A DNA stretch of 63,960 nt, the filler included, from Asterionella formosa (Eukaryota): NCBI GenBank assembly GCA_002256025.1. It is 4 parts of 4 records of this genome, joined end to end, with 100 filler letters (N's around TTAATTAATTAA, not from the genome) between each part and the next. Parts side by side here need not be neighbours in the genome. Positions count along the whole stretch, not along the records: positions 1 to 20,831 come from NKIB01003233.1; 3 more parts are not named here. The stretch is one strand, 5' to 3'. Positions 2,663-44,032 of the stretch are shown here, in pieces. The translations under genes were made by a program, and so were the position numbers. Below the pieces are notes generated by a model. That model saw only the letters and a program-made list of their open reading frames with translations. It was not told the DNA's origin and made no database searches. The number at the start of each line of letters is the position of its first letter. Position 1 is the stretch's first letter.

Positions 2663-4011
2663 ATGAAAAAAACTGTCCGAATCATGTCATCATCAGCACT
2701 TGTTACGTCTCCTTCCTGGCCGAATAGCCTCGCTGCAGCAGCATTTGTTGTCCCCAAACGACATCATATTAATCTAATGAATCCTGTGACTACTCGTCCC
2801 TTGACAACATCAGCATCAACTTCCTTCCTATCCAATACCGACCTGGTTGACAAATTCAACATGTTACATTTATCTTCTTTCAAGCTCAAGGGCTCCTTGA
2901 ACGATGATGCGCCCAGTTTGGCACCATCGAGTGCCGGGTCCGACGTGGACCCCGATGAACTGTTGCAATTGTTTCCCCACGACGAATTGCAAAGTAGCTC
3001 ATCCGATCTCGTCGAAGAAAAAAGTCTTCGATCAATGTTGGTACGTGCAATCGAACCTTGTGATTGTTCAAAATCGTTGTTATATTCGGTAACTTTCTAA
3101 TTTTATTATTTCTCATGTGCTCAATACAGCGACTCCCGATGCAACCTGCTTCGTCGGTCAGAACAAAATTTCGTCGTCCGTTTATTGTTGGGCATCGCGG
3201 CGCCCTCTATGATGAATTGGAGAATACTGTAGAGGGATTTCAACGATGTGCTGATTTGGGTTGTGACGCCGTCGAGTTGGATGTCTTTTTGCTCAAGGAT
3301 GGCACTTTGGTGGTCTTTCATGGGGGTGGATCCGATCAGTTCCCAGGGGACTTGACGGAGTACACTATCAATCACAAGCGCAAGGGAATTTTGAATCTCC
3401 ACACATTTGCAGAAACGCAACAAATACAATTCAATCCTGATTTTGAAGAATTTGCTTGTCCTCCGGAAAAGATTCGTCGAGGTCGGATACCAAAACTTTC
3501 TGAAGTCTTGGCGGATGCGAAAAAGAGTGGTATCATTGTCAAGATTGAACTCAAGGGACCGGGTGTAACAGAACCAGTCTTGAAACTGGTACAAGAGATG
3601 GAAATGGTAGACCAGTGCCACTTTTCATCGTTTGAGCATGATCGTATCGCACTCGTGAGAAAGTTGCACCCAGAGAGAAACGAAGATGGCACCTACAAAT
3701 ACAAGACAGGTGCCTTGTTTCATCACTTACCAGAAGATTTCGTGGAACAAGCGCAACGTGTGGGTGCCAGCGAGGTGCATGTCCGTTACGATGAATGCAC
3801 TCCGACTGTCATTGACGCCATTCACTCCAATGGAATGGATAGCATGGCGTGGTTTCGAGGTCCGATGAGGATGCGAACAGATGTTGCTAATAAATACTTG
3901 GATGTTGGCAATGAGGATTCTCGCATGTACGAAGCACTTCTGGAAACGGGAGTCCAACAAATGTGTGTTAATCGACCCGATGTATTGGTCGGCATGTTTC
4001 CTTTACAGTAA
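2663..4011 (+). CDS. Glycerophosphodiester phosphodiesterase (GDPD family), 2 exons: 2663-3040 and 3130-4011
   Basis: Motifs IVGHRG, ENT, VELDV, VVFH and IELK. A phase-0 intron at 3041-3129 (gtacgt...atacag) joins ORFs 2663 and 3064 in frame. The N-terminus has AAAAF-VVP, a possible plastid-type cleavage motif. Confidence 0.9.
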
Positions 4012-6148
4012 GGGAAACTTAAGGTGAGGCACGAGGCTGGAACAAAACTAGAGATTTATAAAGAATAAAATAGAATAGAGAATTCTTGAATAAATAGTTC
4101 ATTTCGAACCCTTTACAAGGGTGGTAGACTCGTTCGGAAGGTGCTGATGCAACAATACTAGTCGACGGATCCTGCCTTCTTCAATCTTAATCGGATTGTC
4201 GTTTCGAGGAAAGCCCCCCTAGATGCAGTCAACCTTGCTACTGCGACTATATTTGCTTTCGTATCGATCACTGCCTATACCTCATTTTAGAAAGCAAAAA
4301 CGTCAACAATGATAGCTAAGCTCCGTCTTTTGGGAAGATTTACCAATAATTCTTGTTAGTAGAAAGGCCATGCCACCCCTACCAATACCACAAGCAAGCC
4401 GTCGTTGACTCCCATCTGCAGTACCAGGGAACCTAGACTCATTCTACACTCCAAAGTTTTTCATTTGCTCTGCATCGTTTTCCTCAGTGATCTTGATATT
4501 TACTGGAAGAGGCACACTTGAGTGCCTCACTCTTTCTCATCAGCTATAACCATTAAGAATGGAATTATACTATCATGGCTTTTCGCTTTCATTGGAGTAT
4601 CGCGACCCTTCCTTGGTTGCTACTACCTGGTACTTCGTAACTTGGGAAATCTTTCTGGTTGTGAAGCAAAAATACCTATTTTTGGTTTTACAAAGCAAAA
4701 TATTGATTGATTGACAAACTATGCTGCTCTGGGGACATCGTCACTGCTGATTTCGATTGTAGTGTGTCGTACTCCCCCCCCCTCAACTGGTTGATCAAGC
4801 TCATAAGGGTGTCTTCACACATGGCGTAATCCTCATTCTTTACTTTTGGCTGGATGATAATGGCATTTACGGTGCTACACTCGCGTTGAATTTGAAAAGA
4901 GATGCGGCTCCTCACCTTTGTTGTCGCTCTACTGGGTTCATCAGAAGATGACATCCTAATTCTATCTTGGTCGGATCAAGCTAAATGAGAAAAGTTGTAC
5001 TTGACCTATCTTATTTGAAGAAGGAAAGTTTGAGAGTGGAATGCGAAGCAGTGGAAGAATCACACTGTTCTCGCGGCTATGTATATGTACCGGTATATCG
5101 GTAGTCAATTGTTCAATTCCAAAAAATCTTGCATGTTTTGCTCGAAATTGTTGTGAGCTGCCTTAGAAAGGCTGATGGTCATGCGACCCTCCGAATCTAA
5201 TCATTTGTCCTTTTGTATGATATAAATTCGGTCTCAGGTGTTGTGAAGTACGACCTGCTGGCACCACAGGTACACGATGGAGGGAGCACATACCTGGTAC
5301 CAGGTTTCTTGTCTCTCTGTGCAGGAATGACAAACAGCACAGTTGAAATTGTCCGCGTCTCCCTTCACAGTACATACTTAAATCCTTCAAATGCATACAC
5401 GAGATTTTTTTGTGCACCCGGATGACAAACTTTTACGCGATGCTTGATCGACTCTTATTGAAGATTTGCTGGGGACATTACGCTGACCAAAATTCTACTT
5501 CAATCTGTCAGTCGTAACATATCAGTTTTGTCAAAATGACCGCAACCTGCAGGTACGGGTACCAGGTACCGGTAACAGGGACCAACAAGTTGCGGTAAAT
5601 TTGCCGATATGACGATTTGGACATCGCGGATATTCACGCCTGCTGATCCAGTACTAAAATAATTACAATGGTTAACTCGGACAAGGGTTATCTTTCATTC
5701 ATGGCATGATTGTTTGGAACACTATTCTACAGGAATTCGATTTGGCTGGAACTAATTTAGAGTGAAGCTCATTCCCCCAATCTCAAACCACCCAGTCCAT
5801 TCTGTTGGGGTCAGAAAGGCGCACAGAACAATCAGGTTCATTATGTTGGGGCTGATAAAATGAAATATTTCTGATAAAAACATGTTCTAATAATATTCAA
5901 ACCTGGAGATAAGACATCCGAAAGTATCCAAGCATTTTTTTCTGATAAACAAATCAACAAAAGAGGCTAATTTTTTTCAGTACATTTGAATCTTGATTTT
6001 GTTGTTAAAATGTGATGTGCTTGTTGTGGAGCCAATCATAATTTTCGTTGAGTGCGGGCTATCATTGCTGTTTCCTGGGCTGGTGTGCTGTGTTGGTCCT
6101 CTGGTGTGTGTAATGATTGTGATTTATGAAATGGGGTGATTTATAATG

Positions 6149-6168: not shown

Positions 6169-6404
6169 TTATGATTTTTAGCATCATCACCACATTTCTG
6201 TGAACAGTCGTCAATGTCGGCTGCTACTTCCAACAACCAACCACTCTTTCTTCCAAAAATGGTGGCTACAACCAACATGGAACAGTGGGACCAAGAACCA
6301 ACAAGACTATATGATCGTAGCTAACCATCATGTCAACTGAGGAGTGCACTCAATCTGGAGCGCCGCTTTTCGGCGTCATTCTTTGCCAATGCACCATCCA
6401 CAAA

Positions 6405-6635
6405 ATGTCAATTAAATTTTATAGTACATTAAAGCTATCCAATAATTGCACTCGGGCCCACCAAATAGATGGACACAATTAGTACTGGTTTTATTCGTCT
6501 GTACGGTACAACGGGACCTGTCTTTTCGTCAGCTGCACCCCTGGAACCCTAGGGACTACATGAAAAAGACAGGTAGAGAATGCAGGAATCGAACACGCCA
6601 CCACAGTGGGCGTGCTAACCACTAAGCCATTCCCC
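6405..6635 (-). mobile_element. tRNA-derived SINE-like element, copy A, with target-site duplication
   Basis: The minus strand starts GGGGAATGGCTTAGTGG (A box) and has GTTCGATTCC (B box). It is flanked by the direct repeat CAATGCACCATCCACAAA at 6387-6404 and 6636-6653. Confidence 0.75.
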
Positions 6636-7479
6636 CAATGCACCATCCACAAATATCACTACTATGGAAGATCAAGACACAAACCTATGCCAACATTCTA
6701 ATGACGGTTCTCCTTTGCGCAGATGATTGATCTGTCTCTTCCAACAGCGCAATTTGAACAGCCTCCAAAATGGAGGCTGACTTGGTTCTTTAGCTAGCAT
6801 GTACTTCGTTCATTTCCAGCCATGTCATTCGTGAAGATTTTGACCTGGTGGATGATGATTCATACTATGATGATGAAAAAAATGAAGAAATATCATGATT
6901 TTGCCAGGAAGTAACACAAGCATAGTAGGTGTAAGTTGGACCACAGTAAATTCGAAAGAGTGATGTTGTTTGGTAACTCATAAACAACGAAAATGCTCCC
7001 TGCAGATTCCTTGCAAGACAAGCAAACACATGTGATTTTGCAATAAACCAAGCAGTTTTGTGTTATATTTGTCAGCTTTAATGCTTTGTTGACCAATTTG
7101 ATTGATCGCACTTTGATAACGAAAGAAAGAAACAATGAAACTGTGCCAATAGCGTTGTTCCCTGCTAGGTCAATAAGTTGCGAATTCATTTTCAAATACC
7201 AGCACATTTTCTCTTGAAAACGGTCAAACAAGAACTCAAACAATGGACAACAACACTAAATGATTGCTTCTCCAAAATTATCTACCTAATTGGGGCACCT
7301 TGCCATGTCGACCACAATCATATTTATTCAACATAATATATATATAATTATTTAGTAAATTTTACAGTATGCTATTGTTAACGAACTCGACAATTGTGGA
7401 GGTTGTGAAGTCGCACTTGGCATCCTGGGAAAGTCTGTAATCGAGATATTTAGCTTACTCTTTTCATAAGTTAAAAACG

Positions 7480-7637
7480 TGTTTTATCGGACCTTCCAGA
7501 GGGCCTTAGACCTGGTTGTTGTCTCCCTCAACACCTAGAACCCAAGGGACTACATAAACAAAGCAGGCGGAGAATGCGGGAATCGAACCCGCAACCTCGG
7601 TAGATGAGCAAACTAATTACCCGGTAAGCTATTCCCC
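7480..7637 (-). mobile_element. tRNA-derived SINE-like element, copy B (3' end uncertain)
   Basis: Head GGGGAATAGCTTA...GCGGGTTCGATTCCCGCATTCTCC, then ATGTAGTCCCTTGGGTTCTAGG, which matches copy A's ATGTAGTCCCTAGGGTTCCAGG. Confidence 0.65.
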
Positions 7638-8318
7638 TATACATAGATACCAGTATACACTTGATTGACATCCATGACAAAAAGTAGAGCTGCAAGAAAA
7701 TAAATACCATACCCAGTACCCCTGGTAATATTTAGCCTGCCCATTGAAAACTTCTCAGATTGTAAATTAATTATCAATTTGATAAATGATTTATTCGATT
7801 AAAAGCCCTCGCTGTACTGTCCGTTTCAGAAGTACTAGTTCTCAAGAAGGCGAATCAGCTTAATATCCATCACTGCATAGAAATCACAGCTAATTGAAGG
7901 GAGATGGCAGGTTTGATCGATCAGGTTTGCCCATCCTTTGGAGGTAGCTCGTTAATTTTTCCTGGAAATCAGTTTGTAAATTGCTGCATTGCTTTAGTGT
8001 GTAGAGTTTTATCCGTACATGTTCATAACTGCCTTCGGATTAATCATATGCTGGATCAACCCACACTAAAACATGGTTGAACAGAAAAGTCTACTGTAAG
8101 TTCCTTTCAATTTATCTCGAGCACATAATTATGTGGCGAGCCGAACACTTGCTCTGAATTATGCGTACCTTGTTGCCACAGTAGCTAATACAAACCATAA
8201 TGGGAGTGTATGTTCCTGCCTAATTTGAGCAAGGCAATTGCAATATTTTACAACTCATGGTACAATATTTATTTTCAGTTTTTACCACTTATGTTATCGG
8301 GTCCTAGGATACTTTCGA

Positions 8319-9242
8319 CTACCACAAAGGTTCTGTCCCTTCCATGTGTTTGATGGACGATCGTATTCCATGGAGCGCCACCTCCATTCGCTCATTGGCT
8401 GTTGTTGCCATGAGTAGCGCCGGCCTGATTTCCATGGCAACACCCAAGGATGGCAACGGATTGATCAGAGCTCCGACCCAAAAAGCAAGATCGCTTGGGT
8501 GTGTGCTAAGCGGCATTTCTCCCAACTCTTTCAGGAGCTGGTCTATCTGACCTGGGTGCCTTTCATTTTCTCGGGCTAATTCAATCCATCGGTCAACGAG
8601 ACCTGCTTCACTCCCCCATTTCAATTCTCTTCCTTTCCCGATAGCTTGTAGCATATTCCAAGGGTCTGATCCCCTCATCTCCTCCTTCTCCTGTTGGTTC
8701 GAGTCCAGGAACTTCACACGCGCTTCCGTCCAACCTTCTTGCGATGTGGTCGCCTCCTCGGCAACTTCAAATCGTCGACCACCACGCAATTCCAGCATGA
8801 CTGTATTCTTTTCTGTCACCTTAGGTTTCCCTATGACCTGGACTTCTACGCCGTGCTTCATGAAAATGGTCCTGTGGCAGGTCTTGGTGATAGTCTGACA
8901 AAGCCCCACCATGCCAATCGTACTCCCATTCGCTGTTGGTCGCAGTACGGATTTAATGAGCTGCGCAAAGACTGGGTCATCTGACTCGACCGTTATGACT
9001 TGTCGAGGCAACATTGTGTCCATGACAACAATGGGAAGCTTGGTGGCTCGATCCTTGACTTTTCTGATGCGGGACCGGAGCGATGCCATCATGTCGCTGT
9101 CATTTCTAGTACTTCTCATTGCAGAACAGCGACGGCTGCTCGTGGTGGCGTGACATAAGTCCTGTCGAGGTGCCCATCCATTACAGATTCCCACGAGAAA
9201 TACAACGGTGAATAGGATAACAGTGATTGTTTGTGACGACAT
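8319..9242 (-). CDS. Stand-alone LON substrate-binding (Lon N-terminal)-like domain protein, predicted plastid-targeted, paralogue 1
   Basis: First ATG at 9242. Hydrophobic signal ends CNG-WAP. The segments LPIVVMDTMLPRQ, LRGGRRF and LAFWVGALINPLP...EIRPALL follow the LON_substr_bdg layout. No AAA+ or protease domain. Confidence 0.75.
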   Translation of the reverse strand: MSSQTITVILFTVVFLVGICNGWAPRQDLCHATTSSRRCSAMRSTRNDSDMMASLRSRIRKVKDRATKLPIVVMDTMLPRQVITVESDDPVFAQLIKSVLRPTANGSTIGMVGLCQTITKTCHRTIFMKHGVEVQVIGKPKVTEKNTVMLELRGGRRFEVAEEATTSQEGWTEARVKFLDSNQQEKEEMRGSDPWNMLQAIGKGRELKWGSEAGLVDRWIELARENERHPGQIDQLLKELGEMPLSTHPSDLAFWVGALINPLPSLGVAMEIRPALLMATTANERMEVALHGIRSSIKHMEGTEPLW

Positions 9243-11769
9243 TTTGTTCGCTCGCCTGTCCCCCTTGAAAATGGCGAATAAAGTAGGCGAAAGAAAGCAC
9301 GATTCTCGGTCTGCTCTCAACTCTCAAATAGGTCGACTGGGTGTGTCAGCCAAAGTGTAGACAATAGGCTCAATGTACAGGCGGATTAACAAAGCGAGTA
9401 CCGTACCGGTAGTTGAGCTTAACGACAACGATCACAAATCAAACGAGGACACAGGATCCTAATGTCCGATTTTTGTGACAACACTTACCAAAGCCTTCGA
9501 CGTCATGCTGTCCGGAAACAAGGAAGAAAGAAAACATCTGGTCATCAGTCTTGCTGAGCAGATGTCCGTCGTAGGCACCAAGGGTCTGGTGGTATGGTCG
9601 TACCTGGTACCAGGTACCTGGTACTAAGAATTGAGAAGTTTTGTTTCGTTATTCCCAGAGTGATAACCGTCTTTTACCGCACTTTGCCTCGACAAATATA
9701 CAATACCGGTAAACATACCGGTACCTGCCTGGCACTCCGGCATGTATGCATGTACCGGTACCAGTATGTAGCTACATTTATTTAATCATGTGCATAAATA
9801 ATACCATGGGAACTGGCTGGTATGTAGCCTCTTACCTTGCATTGGCAATTTTCAATGGGAACATGCAACCTTTTCTGCTCCAAATGTTTCTTGTTAAAAA
9901 GAGCAATAGAAAATCACTATAAAAAGAATATTAATCAGTCTTTTTTTAGCTAAATTAATATTGTTTCATGATGCTGATCAAGCGATGCGAAATGAACAGT
10001 CAATCCCTGTCATATCAATGTTCAACTTCTTGTTTATCTCTTCGCAAATATTGACTGCCAAGATTCACCAAAAGATAAAGTCGAAAATCACAAATTGCAG
10101 CGATTTCATAATTTCGGAGATTCATCACTCATATACCAAATAATTCATTTTCCTGCGCCCCCCCCCCTCCCACAATGTACACTGCCTGACTGAATTTGAC
10201 GGATTTTATAAGCAAGGGGGGACCAGGAAAATAAAGAGATTTCCTTTATAATAGACCTATGTAAATTTGTTTCGGTTCTACAGGATGGCGCACATTTTTC
10301 TATAATGTCTTAATAAGACAATTATTTCCATCCAGTGAAAAATGAGAGAGTTCTTCAGCTCACAAGAAAAACGCGACTTCATGTGGTTGCTATAGGCGAT
10401 CTCAATTTTCGTTATCATTATTAGTGTTATTACTTTACTTCTTTCATGATTAAATTTTCTATGTCGTGTTTAAAGTACGTAGCAAGCAGTAAAGCGTTGT
10501 TCGCAATTTTCGTGGAGACAATTCGTATTTTCGTCATGGTCAAGGTTCTTGCAACAACATGATGCAGGAGTATCCAGCTGCTCACAACCACTACCGTCCG
10601 TCTACTTTAGTGTTTAATATGTAAAAAGTAATCGCAACATTATAGCTAACTTATAATACTATAACAGTGTCTACAAGAAGGACCAACAGAATTATAGCAC
10701 GTAACTTTGTGTTTGTTTGTCTAAAAAATTATTGGGTGGGGGGGGGGGGGGCAGAACAACGAATTCTACGGTTATCTCACATAGAAACCTTCGAAGAATT
10801 TGTTCTTGCTCTGATAATAACACAGTAATCCTAGTAGCTACATATGAATACTAGAGAACAATTTAAGTTCACCAGCCATGGCTAAATATCAGATCGGCAC
10901 ACACCATCACCTGTTTCATCATCGTTGTCTTCCCTGTCACACTTGTTAGTTTGTATGTTAATTGTTGGATTTAGGTAGTAGCAGCTTGGAGATGAGGGAA
11001 TAATTTTTTTTTGTGGCAAGCAAAAGAAACAGGGAGACCTCCCCACAGTAAGTGACGAGCAGCAGACCGGATATTTTTATCACACATATTTTCCACGAGA
11101 ATCTCACTCAGTTGTCCATTTCATACCTCTTCTTTCTTGTGGAAGCAGTGATAACGATAAATGGTGAGCAAGAAGAAAACTGGCGTAATGTAATTCAGCA
11201 TACAGTTGTTAAGGTGGACATCAGCAATCTGACAAGGGAACAATTAGCGAAGATTTCAAGTAACACTAAAATCGACAGATCAGCAGGGAAATGGAAAGCA
11301 ACAAACGTGTTGTTCTATGGACAGGTGTAGCAATTCAGGAATGGCAAATTTGATTCGCAGATGAATTGTCAGGCATTGAATACCATTGCACACAAATGCT
11401 CTAGCAAACAGCTTACAGTTCCATCAGATTATGGAAGCGCCCAAAAAGATATAAAAGTATCTAATCATGAATTTCTATTACGTTTGATCATTATACAAAA
11501 GCACCACCATTGTTGATCAGCTGATTGATTTAACATTGCTGGGTTTTTCGTGCTGTATTGTGCTTGTGGCCGATTTTCAAAAATAACAAGCAAGGAGTGA
11601 CATAAAGTACTATATGCATTTGTTGAGAGACACCACTAAAATTTCGGCGAATTTCGAGGAAAACAATTTACCTGTAGGAAAACCACCAGGCTACAACAAC
11701 AACTCGGCTTTTACAAACATTTGACTATGGCGACGATTGCATGTTTGTTTTTGTTCTTCCAAATCCAGG

Positions 11770-14123: not shown

Positions 14124-14382
14124 TGGTCCAAAGCGACTTGATTGGTTATGTCTACGCTGTCTCAACATGTGTGTGCGTGATCCTTATGATTAAATCAATA
14201 GAATATTTATTGGTCGAAGAGACATTCTCAACGTAATGCTATTAGAAACAACGAACAATCATCTAGACTGAAGGAGGCATAACATTTAGGGGTTATTTCC
14301 AGGGTCATGGCGCATCCATCTTTAGTATGAGACTGGCCTTTAAGATATTCGACTCCCATAAAACTAGCTCTAGGATATTCGA

Positions 14383-15297
14383 CTACCATAATCGCTCTGT
14401 TCCTTCCATGTGCTTGATGGATGATCGTATTCCGTGAAGCGCCACCTCCATTCGGTCATTGGCTGTCTTTGCCATTAGAAGGGCGGGTCTAATTTCCAAG
14501 GCAACACCCATTCCTGGCAATGGATTGATCAAAGCTCCAACCCAAAATGCAAGCTCACTCGGATTCGTACTATGCGGTATTTCTCCCAAATCTCTTAGCA
14601 GCTGGTCTATCTGTCCTGGCTGTCTCTCATTTTGCCTAGCTAGTTCGACCCATCTGTCGACTAGAGTAGTCTCTCCTCGCTTCAATTCTCTTCCTTTCAT
14701 AATTGCATGTGCTAAAAGTATTGGATCTAAGCCCGCCTCCTCCTCCTGCTCTTGCTGCTTTGAATCCAGGAACTTTACACGAGCTTCCGTCCATCCTTCG
14801 TCCGCCGTGGACAATTCCCCCGCCAATTGGAACCGTCTCCCTCCCCGCAACTGCACCTGGACTGTATTCATTTCCGTCCGATTCGGCTTCCCCAGCACCT
14901 GTACTTCCACCCCGTGCTTCATATACACGGTTTGTCCTGTCGATGTACGTGCCATGCCCAACATTCCAAAGGTCGACCCATCGGTGGTTGGTAAAATCGT
15001 GGTGTAAAGGAGTTGGGCAAAGACTGGGTCGTCAGATTCGAGGCTCAAGACTTGACGAGGTAGCATTGAGTCGATGACAACAATAGGAAGTTTGGTAGCT
15101 CGATCGTTGATTTGTGTCATTCTGGAGCGGAGAGATGCCATCAAGGAGTCGTCGTCGTTGTTGTCACTGCTACTTTTGACAGCAATCGAGAGACGGCGGC
15201 TTGTCGTGGCATGCTGTTGCGGTGCCCATCCGTAACAAAGTCCCATAAGGAGGACCAATAGCATGGTGGTTGTTGCTGCCACGATGGTGACTCTCAT
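14383..15297 (-). CDS. LON substrate-binding-like domain protein, predicted plastid-targeted, paralogue 2
   Basis: ATG at 15297 and signal ending CYG-WAP. Colinear with and highly similar to the 8319-9242 protein (both end HGIRSSIKHMEGTExLW). Confidence 0.78.
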   Translation of the reverse strand: MRVTIVAATTTMLLVLLMGLCYGWAPQQHATTSRRLSIAVKSSSDNNDDDSLMASLRSRMTQINDRATKLPIVVIDSMLPRQVLSLESDDPVFAQLLYTTILPTTDGSTFGMLGMARTSTGQTVYMKHGVEVQVLGKPNRTEMNTVQVQLRGGRRFQLAGELSTADEGWTEARVKFLDSKQQEQEEEAGLDPILLAHAIMKGRELKRGETTLVDRWVELARQNERQPGQIDQLLRDLGEIPHSTNPSELAFWVGALINPLPGMGVALEIRPALLMAKTANDRMEVALHGIRSSIKHMEGTERLW

Positions 15298-19267: not shown

Positions 19268-19340
19268 AGGGAATGGCTTAGTGGCTTAGCACGTTTCCTT
19301 TGATCTGAGGTCGCGAGGTTTGATTCCTGTAATTTTTTGA
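19268..19340 (+). mobile_element. tRNA-derived SINE-like head, copy C (degenerate)
   Basis: GGGAATGGCTTAGTGGCTTAGCACG is nearly identical to the copy A head. Degenerate B box GTTTGATTCC. Confidence 0.55.
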
Positions 19341-19874
19341 GAGGCAATTGTGTTAGATTCGACTCCCACACTCCTTACCATCTTGCATGGTCTTTTCTGG
19401 TGTGCAAGAAAAAGTGGGTTGCCCCCCTACAAGCAGCTTGTGCCGCCTTCCTAGGTGGTAAGAGTTTCCCCTAACACTGCAGCTAAGACAATCACCTTTG
19501 TGAAAGGTGGTTGGGGACTCACCTAGACTAACAAAACTACGGAAGCACAGGTCTTGTTGTCAGGCAGCACAATGAAAAACTTGCCTATAGAAATAGGGGC
19601 TATAGAAATAGGGGAGTACCAATGGGCTATAAATAAAACATACGATCCTTTATACCGGTGTTACATCAAGTGTTCAGAAAAAAATATGTACACAACTACA
19701 GTAATTTTGCTGAATTACCGGTTAAGGGGTTCATGAAATGATGTACCAGTAGATATAGAATTGTTGAACTCCGTACATAGTTGCGATTAAAATAAACGCT
19801 ACAGTCCACAAAAACTGCATACTCGTAGCAGAATGTGTTTTCAAGACTGTAACGTCGAAATGTTTTACAAAAAA

Positions 19875-27232: not shown

Positions 27233-29699
27233 ACTACCTGGTACCCCCAGTATATCACTTCCTACCTGCTACTGGTACTCTGTAAATATATGATAAAATG
27301 TTATTGTCATATGATGTACCGGTACACATGAAGAACTCCCGCCCAAAAAGGGGCTTAAACAATTTGAAACCAAAATCCTTACGTTTAAATAATGATACAA
27401 ATGGGTTATGACTTAGTAAACCAATTGAATGGTCTAAATAATAAGTTCCAACGGACGTAGAAAATATTGATGCAAAAAAATTTCAAGAAAACAGTACCGG
27501 CAGTCATGGAAAACAATGGACATAGCTATCGTGCATTGAATATTTTCGAATTATCTATTTACAAATGTGATCATCTCAACAATACCAGACGTTCCATATT
27601 GAGAGTGCCTTTGATTTTTATAAATGTACGACACTTGGTATATTTATAAACATACAAATTTTATAACTATATACATGGCAAATATATTTGAAATCGTTCT
27701 GTCATGTTAACAAACAATGCCTGCTTCATGAAAAGAAATATTGTAGTAAAGCACATGACAAGAAAGGAAAGTTTACGCAATAACGAAAAGCATTGTGGCT
27801 TCGACACATTGCGCCTTCGAAGGATTGAGTATGTTTAAGGTAATGAAGCCATCAATGTGGTACTTGGATGACAATCGTTGGGAGGCAGGACAAAAACAAA
27901 TTGTAAACTAAACGCACATTTCCTTTTTTCTCAGTTGATTCAACAGCTCGTTTTGCTTGTTGGGGCGGAGCACCAATGTAAAACAAAAAAATTGGTAAGT
28001 GCTCTTGTCGTTGGACTTATTCACTTCTGATGGAACATAATTGACGGACACGCCACTTTACCTTCTCTCAAAGTTATGCTAACGAAAATGAATCGATAAG
28101 TTTTATTTGGCATTATTGGAAACCTGAAACTTACTTATTCAAGAATTTACTGACAATTTACTATTACAGACTTATGCATCACTTGCTTTGATTTGGCTGT
28201 GGTAAGTGAAGCAAGCAAGAGGATACGATGGAATGGCGTGATGTTGTGTCAGTGTAACACGTGTAGCTAACAAGTTGTTCCTTCTCATTGTTACTGTAGT
28301 AACTGCATAGGACAATAGAACCGATCAAACAACAGAATAGTCGGCGAGTTCAGAATGACACTAACAGCAGGGAGAGAGACGCAACATTAGAAAGGCATTG
28401 CTTGGCACAAGATTCAGAAAAGAGGAAGAAAAGGGCGAGACAGGAACAATATACATTGAGCCGAGTAGAGAGAGAAATATTGGTTCGCTGGCATGCAGAA
28501 TAATAGATAGCATTGCTAAATTTGATAGTTAAATTACGATCCATTTCAATCTATTTTGAACAATGCTTGTGATTAGAATTATGATCATGTTTATGATAGA
28601 TTTACGATGAAACAATTCACATGATAGCATAGAGTTGAGCTGATTTTAGGATGCATTGTAGTAATAATTTACATCAAGTAATCACGAGAATTGAAAATTA
28701 TATGAGAAGGTTTATGATGTTGATGAGTAATGTTGTTGATCAGTTGATATACATTGTGTGATGATAATGTTCTTATTATCATTATACATCAAGGTCGGTA
28801 AAATATTAATAAATCATCATGGTTATAGGATACCTTGATCATAGTTTTGATCCAAAAATTATCATAAATACGCAAATCCGGTGCCACTTAGCGTACGATA
28901 CCCTTGATCCTATATGCATGATACTTTTTATTTGCAGACATACTTTTGTGAACTTCATGTTCGTTTCCGTTCATTTTAGAAAACATGATGCAATGTCAAG
29001 TTTAGATAAAACACAATTTTTGTATGTGTCTATGTGTGCTTCAGAGTTTCTGGCACCTCCCAAATGCCGAAATTTTGTCCTGGAAGAAAACTCTGAATTT
29101 CGCTGCTGCTGTGCTTCTTGAAAATAATAAGTTGAACAAACTGTTGCATAGCTAGCATTCTCTAAACACAACTTCAAAGTACACTCAGCACATTACTCCT
29201 AGTATGATTTCACAGCATAAATGGCAGGGTGGAGCACCAATCTATTGATCAGAATATGATAGATGTGAAGGAACATTTAGACTTCATGCAAGTTTTGCTA
29301 ATACTTTCTTACCATTTTGCAAAATGGCAATAACCATTGGATCACCATCAATTTATGGAATAAAATTTCCAGTACTAGTGCCACAACTGCTTGAAACCAT
29401 TGTCTCAGTATACATTTTTCAAAAAGCAGTGTTCCACTTCATACTATGAATCTCTTCCCCCCTTTAAAAGTCACAGCAAGTTTAAATACCAAGATAGTAG
29501 TCCTTGCATTGCTCAAGAGCAACAAGGACGTTTTCTTTTGAAATCAGAGGTGCATGCAGGAGCCCTTGAATTTTGCTCTGGTACCAAAAGTCTTTTCATA
29601 ATCTTCTTGAATTAATCTAACACCACTCATGCCATCCTTTCCTTACAAGAACTTGCTATCCTTTCCTTACAAGAGTATCTTGCTCCTCACCATTGGCAT

Positions 29700-41000: not shown

Positions 41001-41732
41001 GTCTGCAAATAAAAAGTATCATGCATATAGGATCAAGGGTATCGTACGCTAAGTGGCACAGGATTTTCGTACATATGATAATTTTTGGATCAAAAATATG
41101 ATCAAGGTATCTTGTAACTATGATGATTTATTAATATTTTACCGACCTTGAAGTATAATGATAATAAGAACATTATCATCACACAATGTATATAAACTGA
41201 TCAACAACATTTCCCATCAATATCATAAACCTTCTCATATTATTTTCACTTCTCGTGATCGCCCGATGTAAATTATAACTACAACGTATCCTAAAACCAG
41301 CTCAACTCTATGCTATCATGTGAATTGTTTCATCGTAAATCTATCATAAACATGATCATAATTCTAATCACAAGGATTGTTCAAAATAGATTGAAATGGA
41401 TCGTAATTTAACTATCAAAATAAGCAATGCTATCTATTAATCTACATGCCAGTGACCCAACGTTTCTCTCTCTACTTGGCTCAATGTATATTGTTCCTGT
41501 CTCGCCCTTTTCTTCCTCTTTTCTGCATCTTGTGCAAAGCAATGCCTTACTAATGTTTCGTCTCTCTCCCTGCTGTTAGTGTCATTGTGAACTCGCCGGC
41601 TATTCCGTTTGATCGGTTTTATTTTCCTATGCATGCAGTTACAGTAACAATGAGAAGGAATGATTTGTTAGCTAGTCATGTTACATTGACACAAGAACAC
41701 GCAATTCCATCGTATCCTCTTGCTTCACTTAC
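41001..41732 (-). repeat. Inverted second copy of 28202-28939 (end of the TIR element), truncated by a contig gap
   Basis: Reverse complement aligns colinearly with scattered substitutions. It starts exactly at GTCTGCAAAT. Confidence 0.92.
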
Positions 41733-43112: not shown

Positions 43113-43212
43113 NNNNNNNNNNNNNNNNNNNNNNNNNNNNNNNNNNNNNNNNNNNNTTAATTAATTAANNNNNNNNNNNNNNNNNNNNNNNNNNNNNNNN
43201 NNNNNNNNNNNN

Positions 43213-44032
43213 TGAATGCTGCAACTCGATCGAAAATGGAAGTTCGTTCAAAAGCTACTTGGTCACTGCATTTTCCCGGTGCAATTACACCAAAATAAAT
43301 AAATCTTGAGTCAGCATCACAAACAGCCTGGACATTGATTCCATAAGTCATGTAGTGACCGGAAAAAAATGAACCAGGGTTGTTGCCACTTTCAACTATA
43401 GTCGGGCGGTTGATGGTGGCTAGGAAGCCGTCAATAGCACCAACACATCCTCTCATCATGCCCTCTGAGCTTTTGCATTCAAAGCTGGAAGCCAATTTGA
43501 TAAATTCTTCTTTTTCTTTTGGAAAAACAATTTCGAGTTCTCCACAGTTTAGTACAGCAGCATCAATGAACAAATCACGACATCGATAAAGTGAAGCAAT
43601 GCTACAACCGTAGGCATGACGAATGTCGATGTAACTGCCACCAGCCAGCCATCGCAAACCAATGGCTACCACAATTTCGGGAATTATGGGCTCAGAAGTG
43701 CCACATTTGGAATAATTCCCTGCAATCTAAATTTCCAGCATGGAGGTGAGTTTTTTGAATGCTCTGTGTGACATTCTGTTTGTCTTCTCGAAAGCAATCT
43801 CGTGATTGAGTTTCTTGACATGTGATTGCCAGGAGATTCTTTCGTGGTGCCACTTGTGCCTTCGTTGTCGTCGTCGTTCAGATGACTGAAGCTGCCGTTT
43901 ACAGCGTCGCCTTTGTCGTTTGGATGAGTGTTCTTTTTCCTCTGCTTCCTTAGCTAAATGACAGAGGAAGAAGAAATCAAGATCACTACTGTCATCGTCA
44001 TTATCATCAAGTAAATCAAATGGCGACGACAT
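43213..44032 (-). mobile_element. PIF/Harbinger-type (DDE_Tnp_4) transposase with in-frame stop, truncated by gap
   Basis: LRWLAGGSY, GCVGAIDG, FFSGHY..YGINVQAVCDADSRF and PGKCSD. ORFs 44032 and 43672 are in the same frame, separated by a stop at 43727-43729. Confidence 0.85.

Follow-up and report, generated by a model that had tools for sequence, protein, structure and literature searches.

A tRNA-derived head joined to a LINE-derived tail is a familiar SINE design in animals and plants. To our knowledge, the long-standing view has been that most unicellular eukaryotes lack SINEs. Stringent SINE–LINE pairs are described for eel, for maize (SINE/L1) and for Chlamydomonas (SINEX-3/L1-1) (PMC3747384). 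In the excerpts of that paper, these pairs have the same layout as the element described here, which we call SINE family A: a tRNA head with A and B boxes, a unique body, a 3′ end that is shared with a LINE and holds a stem, and long duplications of variable length. What sets A apart, as far as those excerpts go, is its diatom host and an RNase H-bearing partner LINE of ~1900 aa, its short terminal T run where the stringent pairs have poly(A) or a microsatellite, and the correspondence of three SINE families with as many lineages of a single LINE group.

SINEs have been counted in diatoms before. Phaeodactylum tricornutum has 13 putative copies (1,454 bp; PMC5859163), and SINEs from repeat annotation are given for Cyclotella cryptica (PMC7466962) and Pleurosigma pacificum (PMC12803021). 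These counts have the class label and the organism group in common with A; in the excerpted text of the three papers they come without a parent tRNA, a duplication or a partner LINE, and A is set apart from them by descriptions, not by sequences. None of the papers listed in our literature search describes a SINE family or a SINE–LINE pair from a diatom, diatom SINEs being mentioned only as annotation counts. That A is undescribed is plausible; it is unproven because SINEs have already been counted in three diatom genome papers and the comparison was one with the literature, with Repbase, Dfam and SINEBase lying outside it. Further afield, the mollusc Vhc and Snail SINEs have internal T4–T5 runs followed by C, as A does (PMC4758252, in part); unlike theirs, the T5 of A sits at the terminator position of the parent tRNA gene, and the likeness is one of description only. 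The most abundant Ectocarpus family is described, in the portion of text available, as having a LINE tail and a head that was not identified (PMC12477816).

The window (the whole stretch of Asterionella formosa DNA that was analysed, 63,960 nucleotides with filler) had been read from sequence only as holding a ~230-bp minus-strand unit with an ~18-bp duplication. The unit proved to be 234 bp long, at 6402–6635, and lies between exact 19-bp repeats; the A box, the B box and the 11-bp inverted pair are as that reading had placed them. The features are as follows.

6402–6635, minus strand: copy of SINE family A, terminal T run included (from genome matches, the consensus and contig loose ends).
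6386–6404: target-site duplication on the 3′ side of the element, its first T's overlapping the element's T tail.
6635–6653: target-site duplication on the 5′ side of the element (exact-repeat comparison).
6574–6635, minus strand: tRNA-Ala(AGC)-derived head with a shortened anticodon arm (tRNA alignment).
6619–6629, minus strand: A box, within the tRNA-derived head.
6585–6594, minus strand: B box, within the tRNA-derived head.
6563–6567, minus strand: internal T5 run, then C, aligned with the terminator position of the parent tRNA gene.
6516–6574, minus strand: body helix with arms 6564–6574 and 6516–6526, an 11-bp inverted pair common to family B.
6405–6476, minus strand: LINE-like 3′ tail with terminal stem arms 6447–6452 and 6423–6428 (LINE-end comparison).
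7346–7637, minus strand: family B copy with a 76-bp insert at 7421–7496 (genome search; consensus ~219 bp).
19269–19645, plus strand: family C copy (genome search; consensus ~360 bp).

The family A copy differs from the 235-base consensus by seven substitutions and one deletion. Its flanking repeats (6386–6404 and 6635–6653) are identical over 19 bp; the first G of the element coincides with the outer C, and the duplication is therefore 18–19 bp long. Loose ends of public contigs accumulate at 6402–6403, 6410 and 6635, and those at 6402–6403 and 6635 mark the boundaries of the copy. It is intergenic, between a glycerophosphodiesterase frame (3064–4011) and a LON-domain frame (8319–9323). Runs X2, X4 and X7 all contain both junctions of the element, the flanks in some cases being clearly different, and the insertion is therefore old or widespread. 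No empty site at the locus was seen in four runs: none of the joints listed, 15 of 60, runs across the element. Contigs show presence, not absence. We take this intergenic copy to be an old insertion; it shows no sign of function.

Several other features of the window were recorded. Contig depth in the flanks is raised at 5600–5860, 6035–6121 and 6209–6295, which suggests that more short repeats adjoin the element. Two LON-domain paralogues (8304–9193 and 14370–15245) have 72% DNA identity, a 740-bp repeat occurs in inverted orientation at 28202–28939 and 41001–41732 (91%), and a DDE_Tnp_4 transposase fragment at 43160–43726 adjoins an assembly gap. The aminotransferase gene of the window lies on a different contig from the family A copy, beyond N gaps, and the species-named relatives among its best 120 matches are diatoms.

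A search of the genome returned 651 candidates for family A. Forty were scored, and the 39 besides the 6402–6635 copy show 90–95% identity across 224 or more of 231 bases. Copies are thus not few and homology is not limited to the head, contrary to what tRNA pseudogenes with a local duplication would show. Moreover, a 20-base motif from the A tail has 64 exact occurrences in the genome and its reversed control none. Among 36 copies, divergence from the consensus ranges from 1 to 16% (mean 5%). Summed contig depth over the element against its flanks is ~600–1000x in X1 and 200–400x in X4 and X7; such depth is not a copy number and is taken only as consistent with hundreds of copies. We infer that family A comprises several hundred copies. 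Of four metagenome loci with the head motif, three are longer relatives at 82–85% and one (L310) consists of bases 1–75 only.

Individual copies also have their own target-site duplications, as the retroposition reading had anticipated: these were found at 25 of 29 distinct full-length A copies (13–23 bp, median 18), compared with 0.12% of 812 mismatched flank pairs. The tested copies were mostly the best-scoring ones, and the rate is therefore an upper estimate. The first base of the duplication is T in 18/25 cases for A, 13/15 for B and 14/15 for C. Like other SINE2/tRNA elements, A is short (below ~600 bp), non-coding, multi-copy and interspersed, with common ends and with duplications that vary in length and differ at each copy.

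Small insertions and deletions in the SINE copies show a pattern of their own. In 91 copies (L001–L309, 23.8 kb aligned; a few of them near-duplicates), counted against the consensus, 3-bp insertions make up 46 of 97 insertions and 1-bp deletions 42 of 58 deletions. Thirty-five of the 46 can be read as a 2-bp duplication around C or G, a reading that also fits 9% of random insertions and 80% of plain 3-bp tandem duplications; imperfect cases and longer TA-flanked forms are included. Such insertions occur about once every 500 bp and may have been left behind on excision by a DNA transposon with C...G ends that makes 2-bp duplications.

The heads related to that of A that had been noticed at 7637 (minus) and 19269 (plus) do exist, the first matching at 82% along 66 bp and the second at 96% along 25 bp. 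They had been taken, with A, as three diverged copies of one abundant family. The abundance stands, and the single family does not: A, B and C are three separate abundant families with a common head. The genome search gave 492 candidates for B and 705 for C, 40 of each being scored, and duplications were found at 15/19 copies of B (control 0%) and 15/23 copies of C (control 0.6%). For the copies in the window themselves, no clear duplication was seen at 7346–7637, and that at 19269–19645 is weak (score 7, threshold 10). The 76-bp insert in the B copy (7421–7496) has no other match among the compared loci. B has the head and the body helix in common with A, in agreement with the earlier proposal that the 7637 element shares the post-tRNA core; differences between the two fall on both strands of the helix with pairing kept, and against mononucleotide shuffles the helix scores z −2.95 for A and −1.97 for B. 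C has only the head in common with A. Bases 65–105 of the C consensus hold a T6–T7 run and, behind it, another stretch resembling a B box, so that the head of C may be dimeric.

The parent of the head was sought among 24 host tRNA genes (22 from genome loci and two from the window; Rfam matches in the genome number 62). tRNA-Ala(AGC) comes top for the A head (60.5, next 48) and for the B head (71.5, next 53). For the C head the top score is that of an organellar-looking Ala-TGC gene (54.5 vs 48.5), and C is therefore assigned via its likeness to A and B. The A consensus matches the last 22 bases of tRNA-Ala(AGC) at 21 positions, which upholds the tRNA-Ala origin proposed from the sequence. The G3:U70 pair on which that proposal was based did not hold except in a refolded register, because the stretch that precedes the A box has one base fewer in the SINE than in the tRNA. 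The anticodon arm, described as broken, is indeed short of ~10 bases relative to host tRNA-Ala(AGC), and the head lacks the complete cloverleaf of a tRNA gene. Neither ARAGORN nor Rfam calls it a tRNA; each reports just two real tRNAs, located in other parts of the window.

The 3′ tail of A matches LINE 3′ ends of the same genome, a comparison that the sequence-only reading had called for. The best match, to a third lineage of one LINE group, is 81% over 52 bp (E 1.7e-8). In 40 further LINE-end stretches the A consensus has five matches at E ≤ 0.056, from base 179 on, and a profile of the A tail has six at E ≤ 0.011. The A-like LINE tails directly follow the stop that closes a homologous LINE C-terminus. 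A thus has one mark of a stringent pair, a 3′ end homologous to that of a resident LINE. Contig C13971 ends in an A-like tail (L301) and matches residues 186–1269 and 1503–1845 of a 1879-aa endonuclease–RT protein, with 11 stops in the main match; among the six LINE ends with A-like tails, the link to RT is through this contig only. No intact LINE of the third lineage was seen, the stretches with A-like tails being fragments or carrying stops. The B tail corresponds to the second lineage (L193 type; 79% over 70 bp, E 3.6e-14) and the C tail to the first (L132 type; E 1.5e-4). As direct donors of the A tail these two lineages gave only weak, non-significant matches (E 0.04–0.075).

The LINE group as a whole carries RNase H and is large and decayed: it is poorly found by Pfam RT and RNase H searches (one RNase H match), and protein searches with its own C-terminus gave 100 and 137 matches. 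Full-length relatives are ~1900 aa long, with endonuclease, RT and zinc-finger domains. A young lineage (L192–L194, L241–L262) has open frames of 625–743 aa and a B-type 3′ end. We take it that the partner LINE possibly belongs to the Ambal clade. Ambal LINEs have an endonuclease–RT–RNase H layout and a diatom origin, and the clade is listed in Repbase. The likeness is drawn through the endonuclease, RT, RNase H and zinc-finger domains of the partner LINE; no named Ambal sequence occurred among the best 120 of 669 relatives listed, and no solved relative was found. 'LINE/Ambal' is annotated in a diatom genome (PMC12803021, in part).

Other reverse transcriptases were also noted. A poly(A)-tailed endonuclease–RT–CCHC LINE (L081–L094, L111–L123, L114) has copies 97–99.9% alike across many small contigs and open frames of up to 1008 aa; judging by these sequences it was probably active recently. 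As a tail donor it was rejected, having no match to the A, B or C tail. The frame of L126 (G000:C9266, 642 bp), a small contig, resembles a fragment of mammalian LINE-1 ORF2, and L126 is likely a contamination of the assembly. A 1058-aa open frame in L115 (G000:C10287) resembles, in its motifs, a telomerase reverse transcriptase.

The shared tails hold a stem. Across two A copies and six LINE ends of the third lineage, a 9-pair 3′ stem has 97% of cells paired, compared with 22–51% in slid registers. Two pairs are changed on both sides, and 9 of 500 shuffles score as high, a value that related sequences can reach without structure. Its 6-pair core is 90% paired over 27 LINE and SINE ends of all lineages; covariation over these ends is not above shuffles (194/500), in an alignment where one row is too short and one lineage is aligned in another register. 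Folded as a whole, the A consensus does not exceed its shuffles in stability (z −1.2). The 3′ stem is therefore conserved, and these data hint at selection to keep it paired.

Taken together, the many full-length copies with their own duplications, the tRNA-Ala head and the LINE-matching tail bear out SINE retroposition, and we hold it highly probable that A is a non-autonomous retroposon of the SINE2/tRNA type that moves by the mechanism set out here, the transcription route and the exact partner being the weaker steps. RNA polymerase III would start from the A and B boxes, sometimes read past the internal T5, and stop at the terminal T run. A LINE protein would then recognise the 3′ stem, nick the target and reverse-transcribe the RNA in place, with the U-rich RNA end pairing to the nicked strand; the prevalence of T as first base of the duplications fits such pairing. 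Cleavage of the second strand ~18 bp away would give the target-site duplication. A, B and C would have kept a common head and acquired different tails, each from its own lineage within one LINE group. The SINE biology that underlies this scheme is established (PMC3747384, in part). Five RNA runs contain 8–31% of words, which is not evidence of expression.

The transcription step is where the internal T5 has to be weighed. It aligns with the T5 behind the host tRNA-Ala(AGC) gene, and is the longest internal run in 28 of 36 A copies; it is broken in B, and 19 of 27 C copies have T6–T7. Behind 20 host nuclear tRNA genes the longest T run is T4 or T5 in 12 (range T4–T8), and the T5 of A could therefore terminate transcription. 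Lying at the parent terminator position, it would require read-through for a full-length RNA. If the run stopped polymerase III right behind the head, A would have to be copied from read-through or polymerase II transcripts, and its retention in most A copies, the longer runs of C, the runs behind host tRNA genes and the metagenome copy that consists of bases 1–75 only all suit that account. We nevertheless consider it unlikely: the sharp 5′ ends at the tRNA start, the intact A and B boxes and the T-run 3′ end fit polymerase III, and A has a C directly after its T5, as do the mollusc SINEs whose internal T4–T5 runs their authors, in the excerpted text, link to read-through (PMC4758252).

The choice of partner is open to a similar objection. 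The SINE might instead be mobilised, without recognition of its tail, by a different LINE, for instance the young endonuclease–RT–CCHC family with poly(A) tails, the likeness to LINE ends then being a relic; that family is very young (97–99.9% alike, frames of up to 1008 aa), and the LINEs with A-like tails look decayed. However, A ends in T and not in poly(A), no match links the A tail to that family, and copies that lie 1–16% from their consensus (mean 5%) need not depend on today's youngest LINE, all of which makes such mobilisation quite improbable. The 11-bp inverted repeat inside the body might recall a MITE-like DNA element, or the locus might hold tRNA pseudogenes and a chance local duplication. 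This is refuted by the full-length genome copies and the per-copy duplications, and we give it virtually no weight: homology extends over the whole A unit in unrelated flanks, the inverted repeat is internal, the ends of the copies are not inverted, and duplications vary in length where a MITE or DNA transposon would have terminal inverted repeats and a fixed short duplication.

This analysis contributes the parent tRNA gene of A, the assignment of each of the three families to its own LINE lineage, and the position of the terminator. Three abundant families with their parent tRNA and matched LINE lineages constitute a worked SINE–LINE system in stramenopiles. Their tails point to the RNA signal used by a little-studied LINE group, and the SINE copies supply insertion markers for strains. 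More speculatively, and with considerable doubt, A, B and C may form a diatom SINE superfamily that arose from a read-through tRNA-Ala(AGC) transcript and kept the gene's terminator. The leaky stop would then set the ratio of short tRNA-like RNA to full mobile RNA and so limit jumping, and the superfamily would have been re-tailed on three lineages of the RNase H LINE group (possibly Ambal) with one common 3′ stem. If so, these would be the first SINE partners, and the stem the first recognition signal, for that LINE clade.
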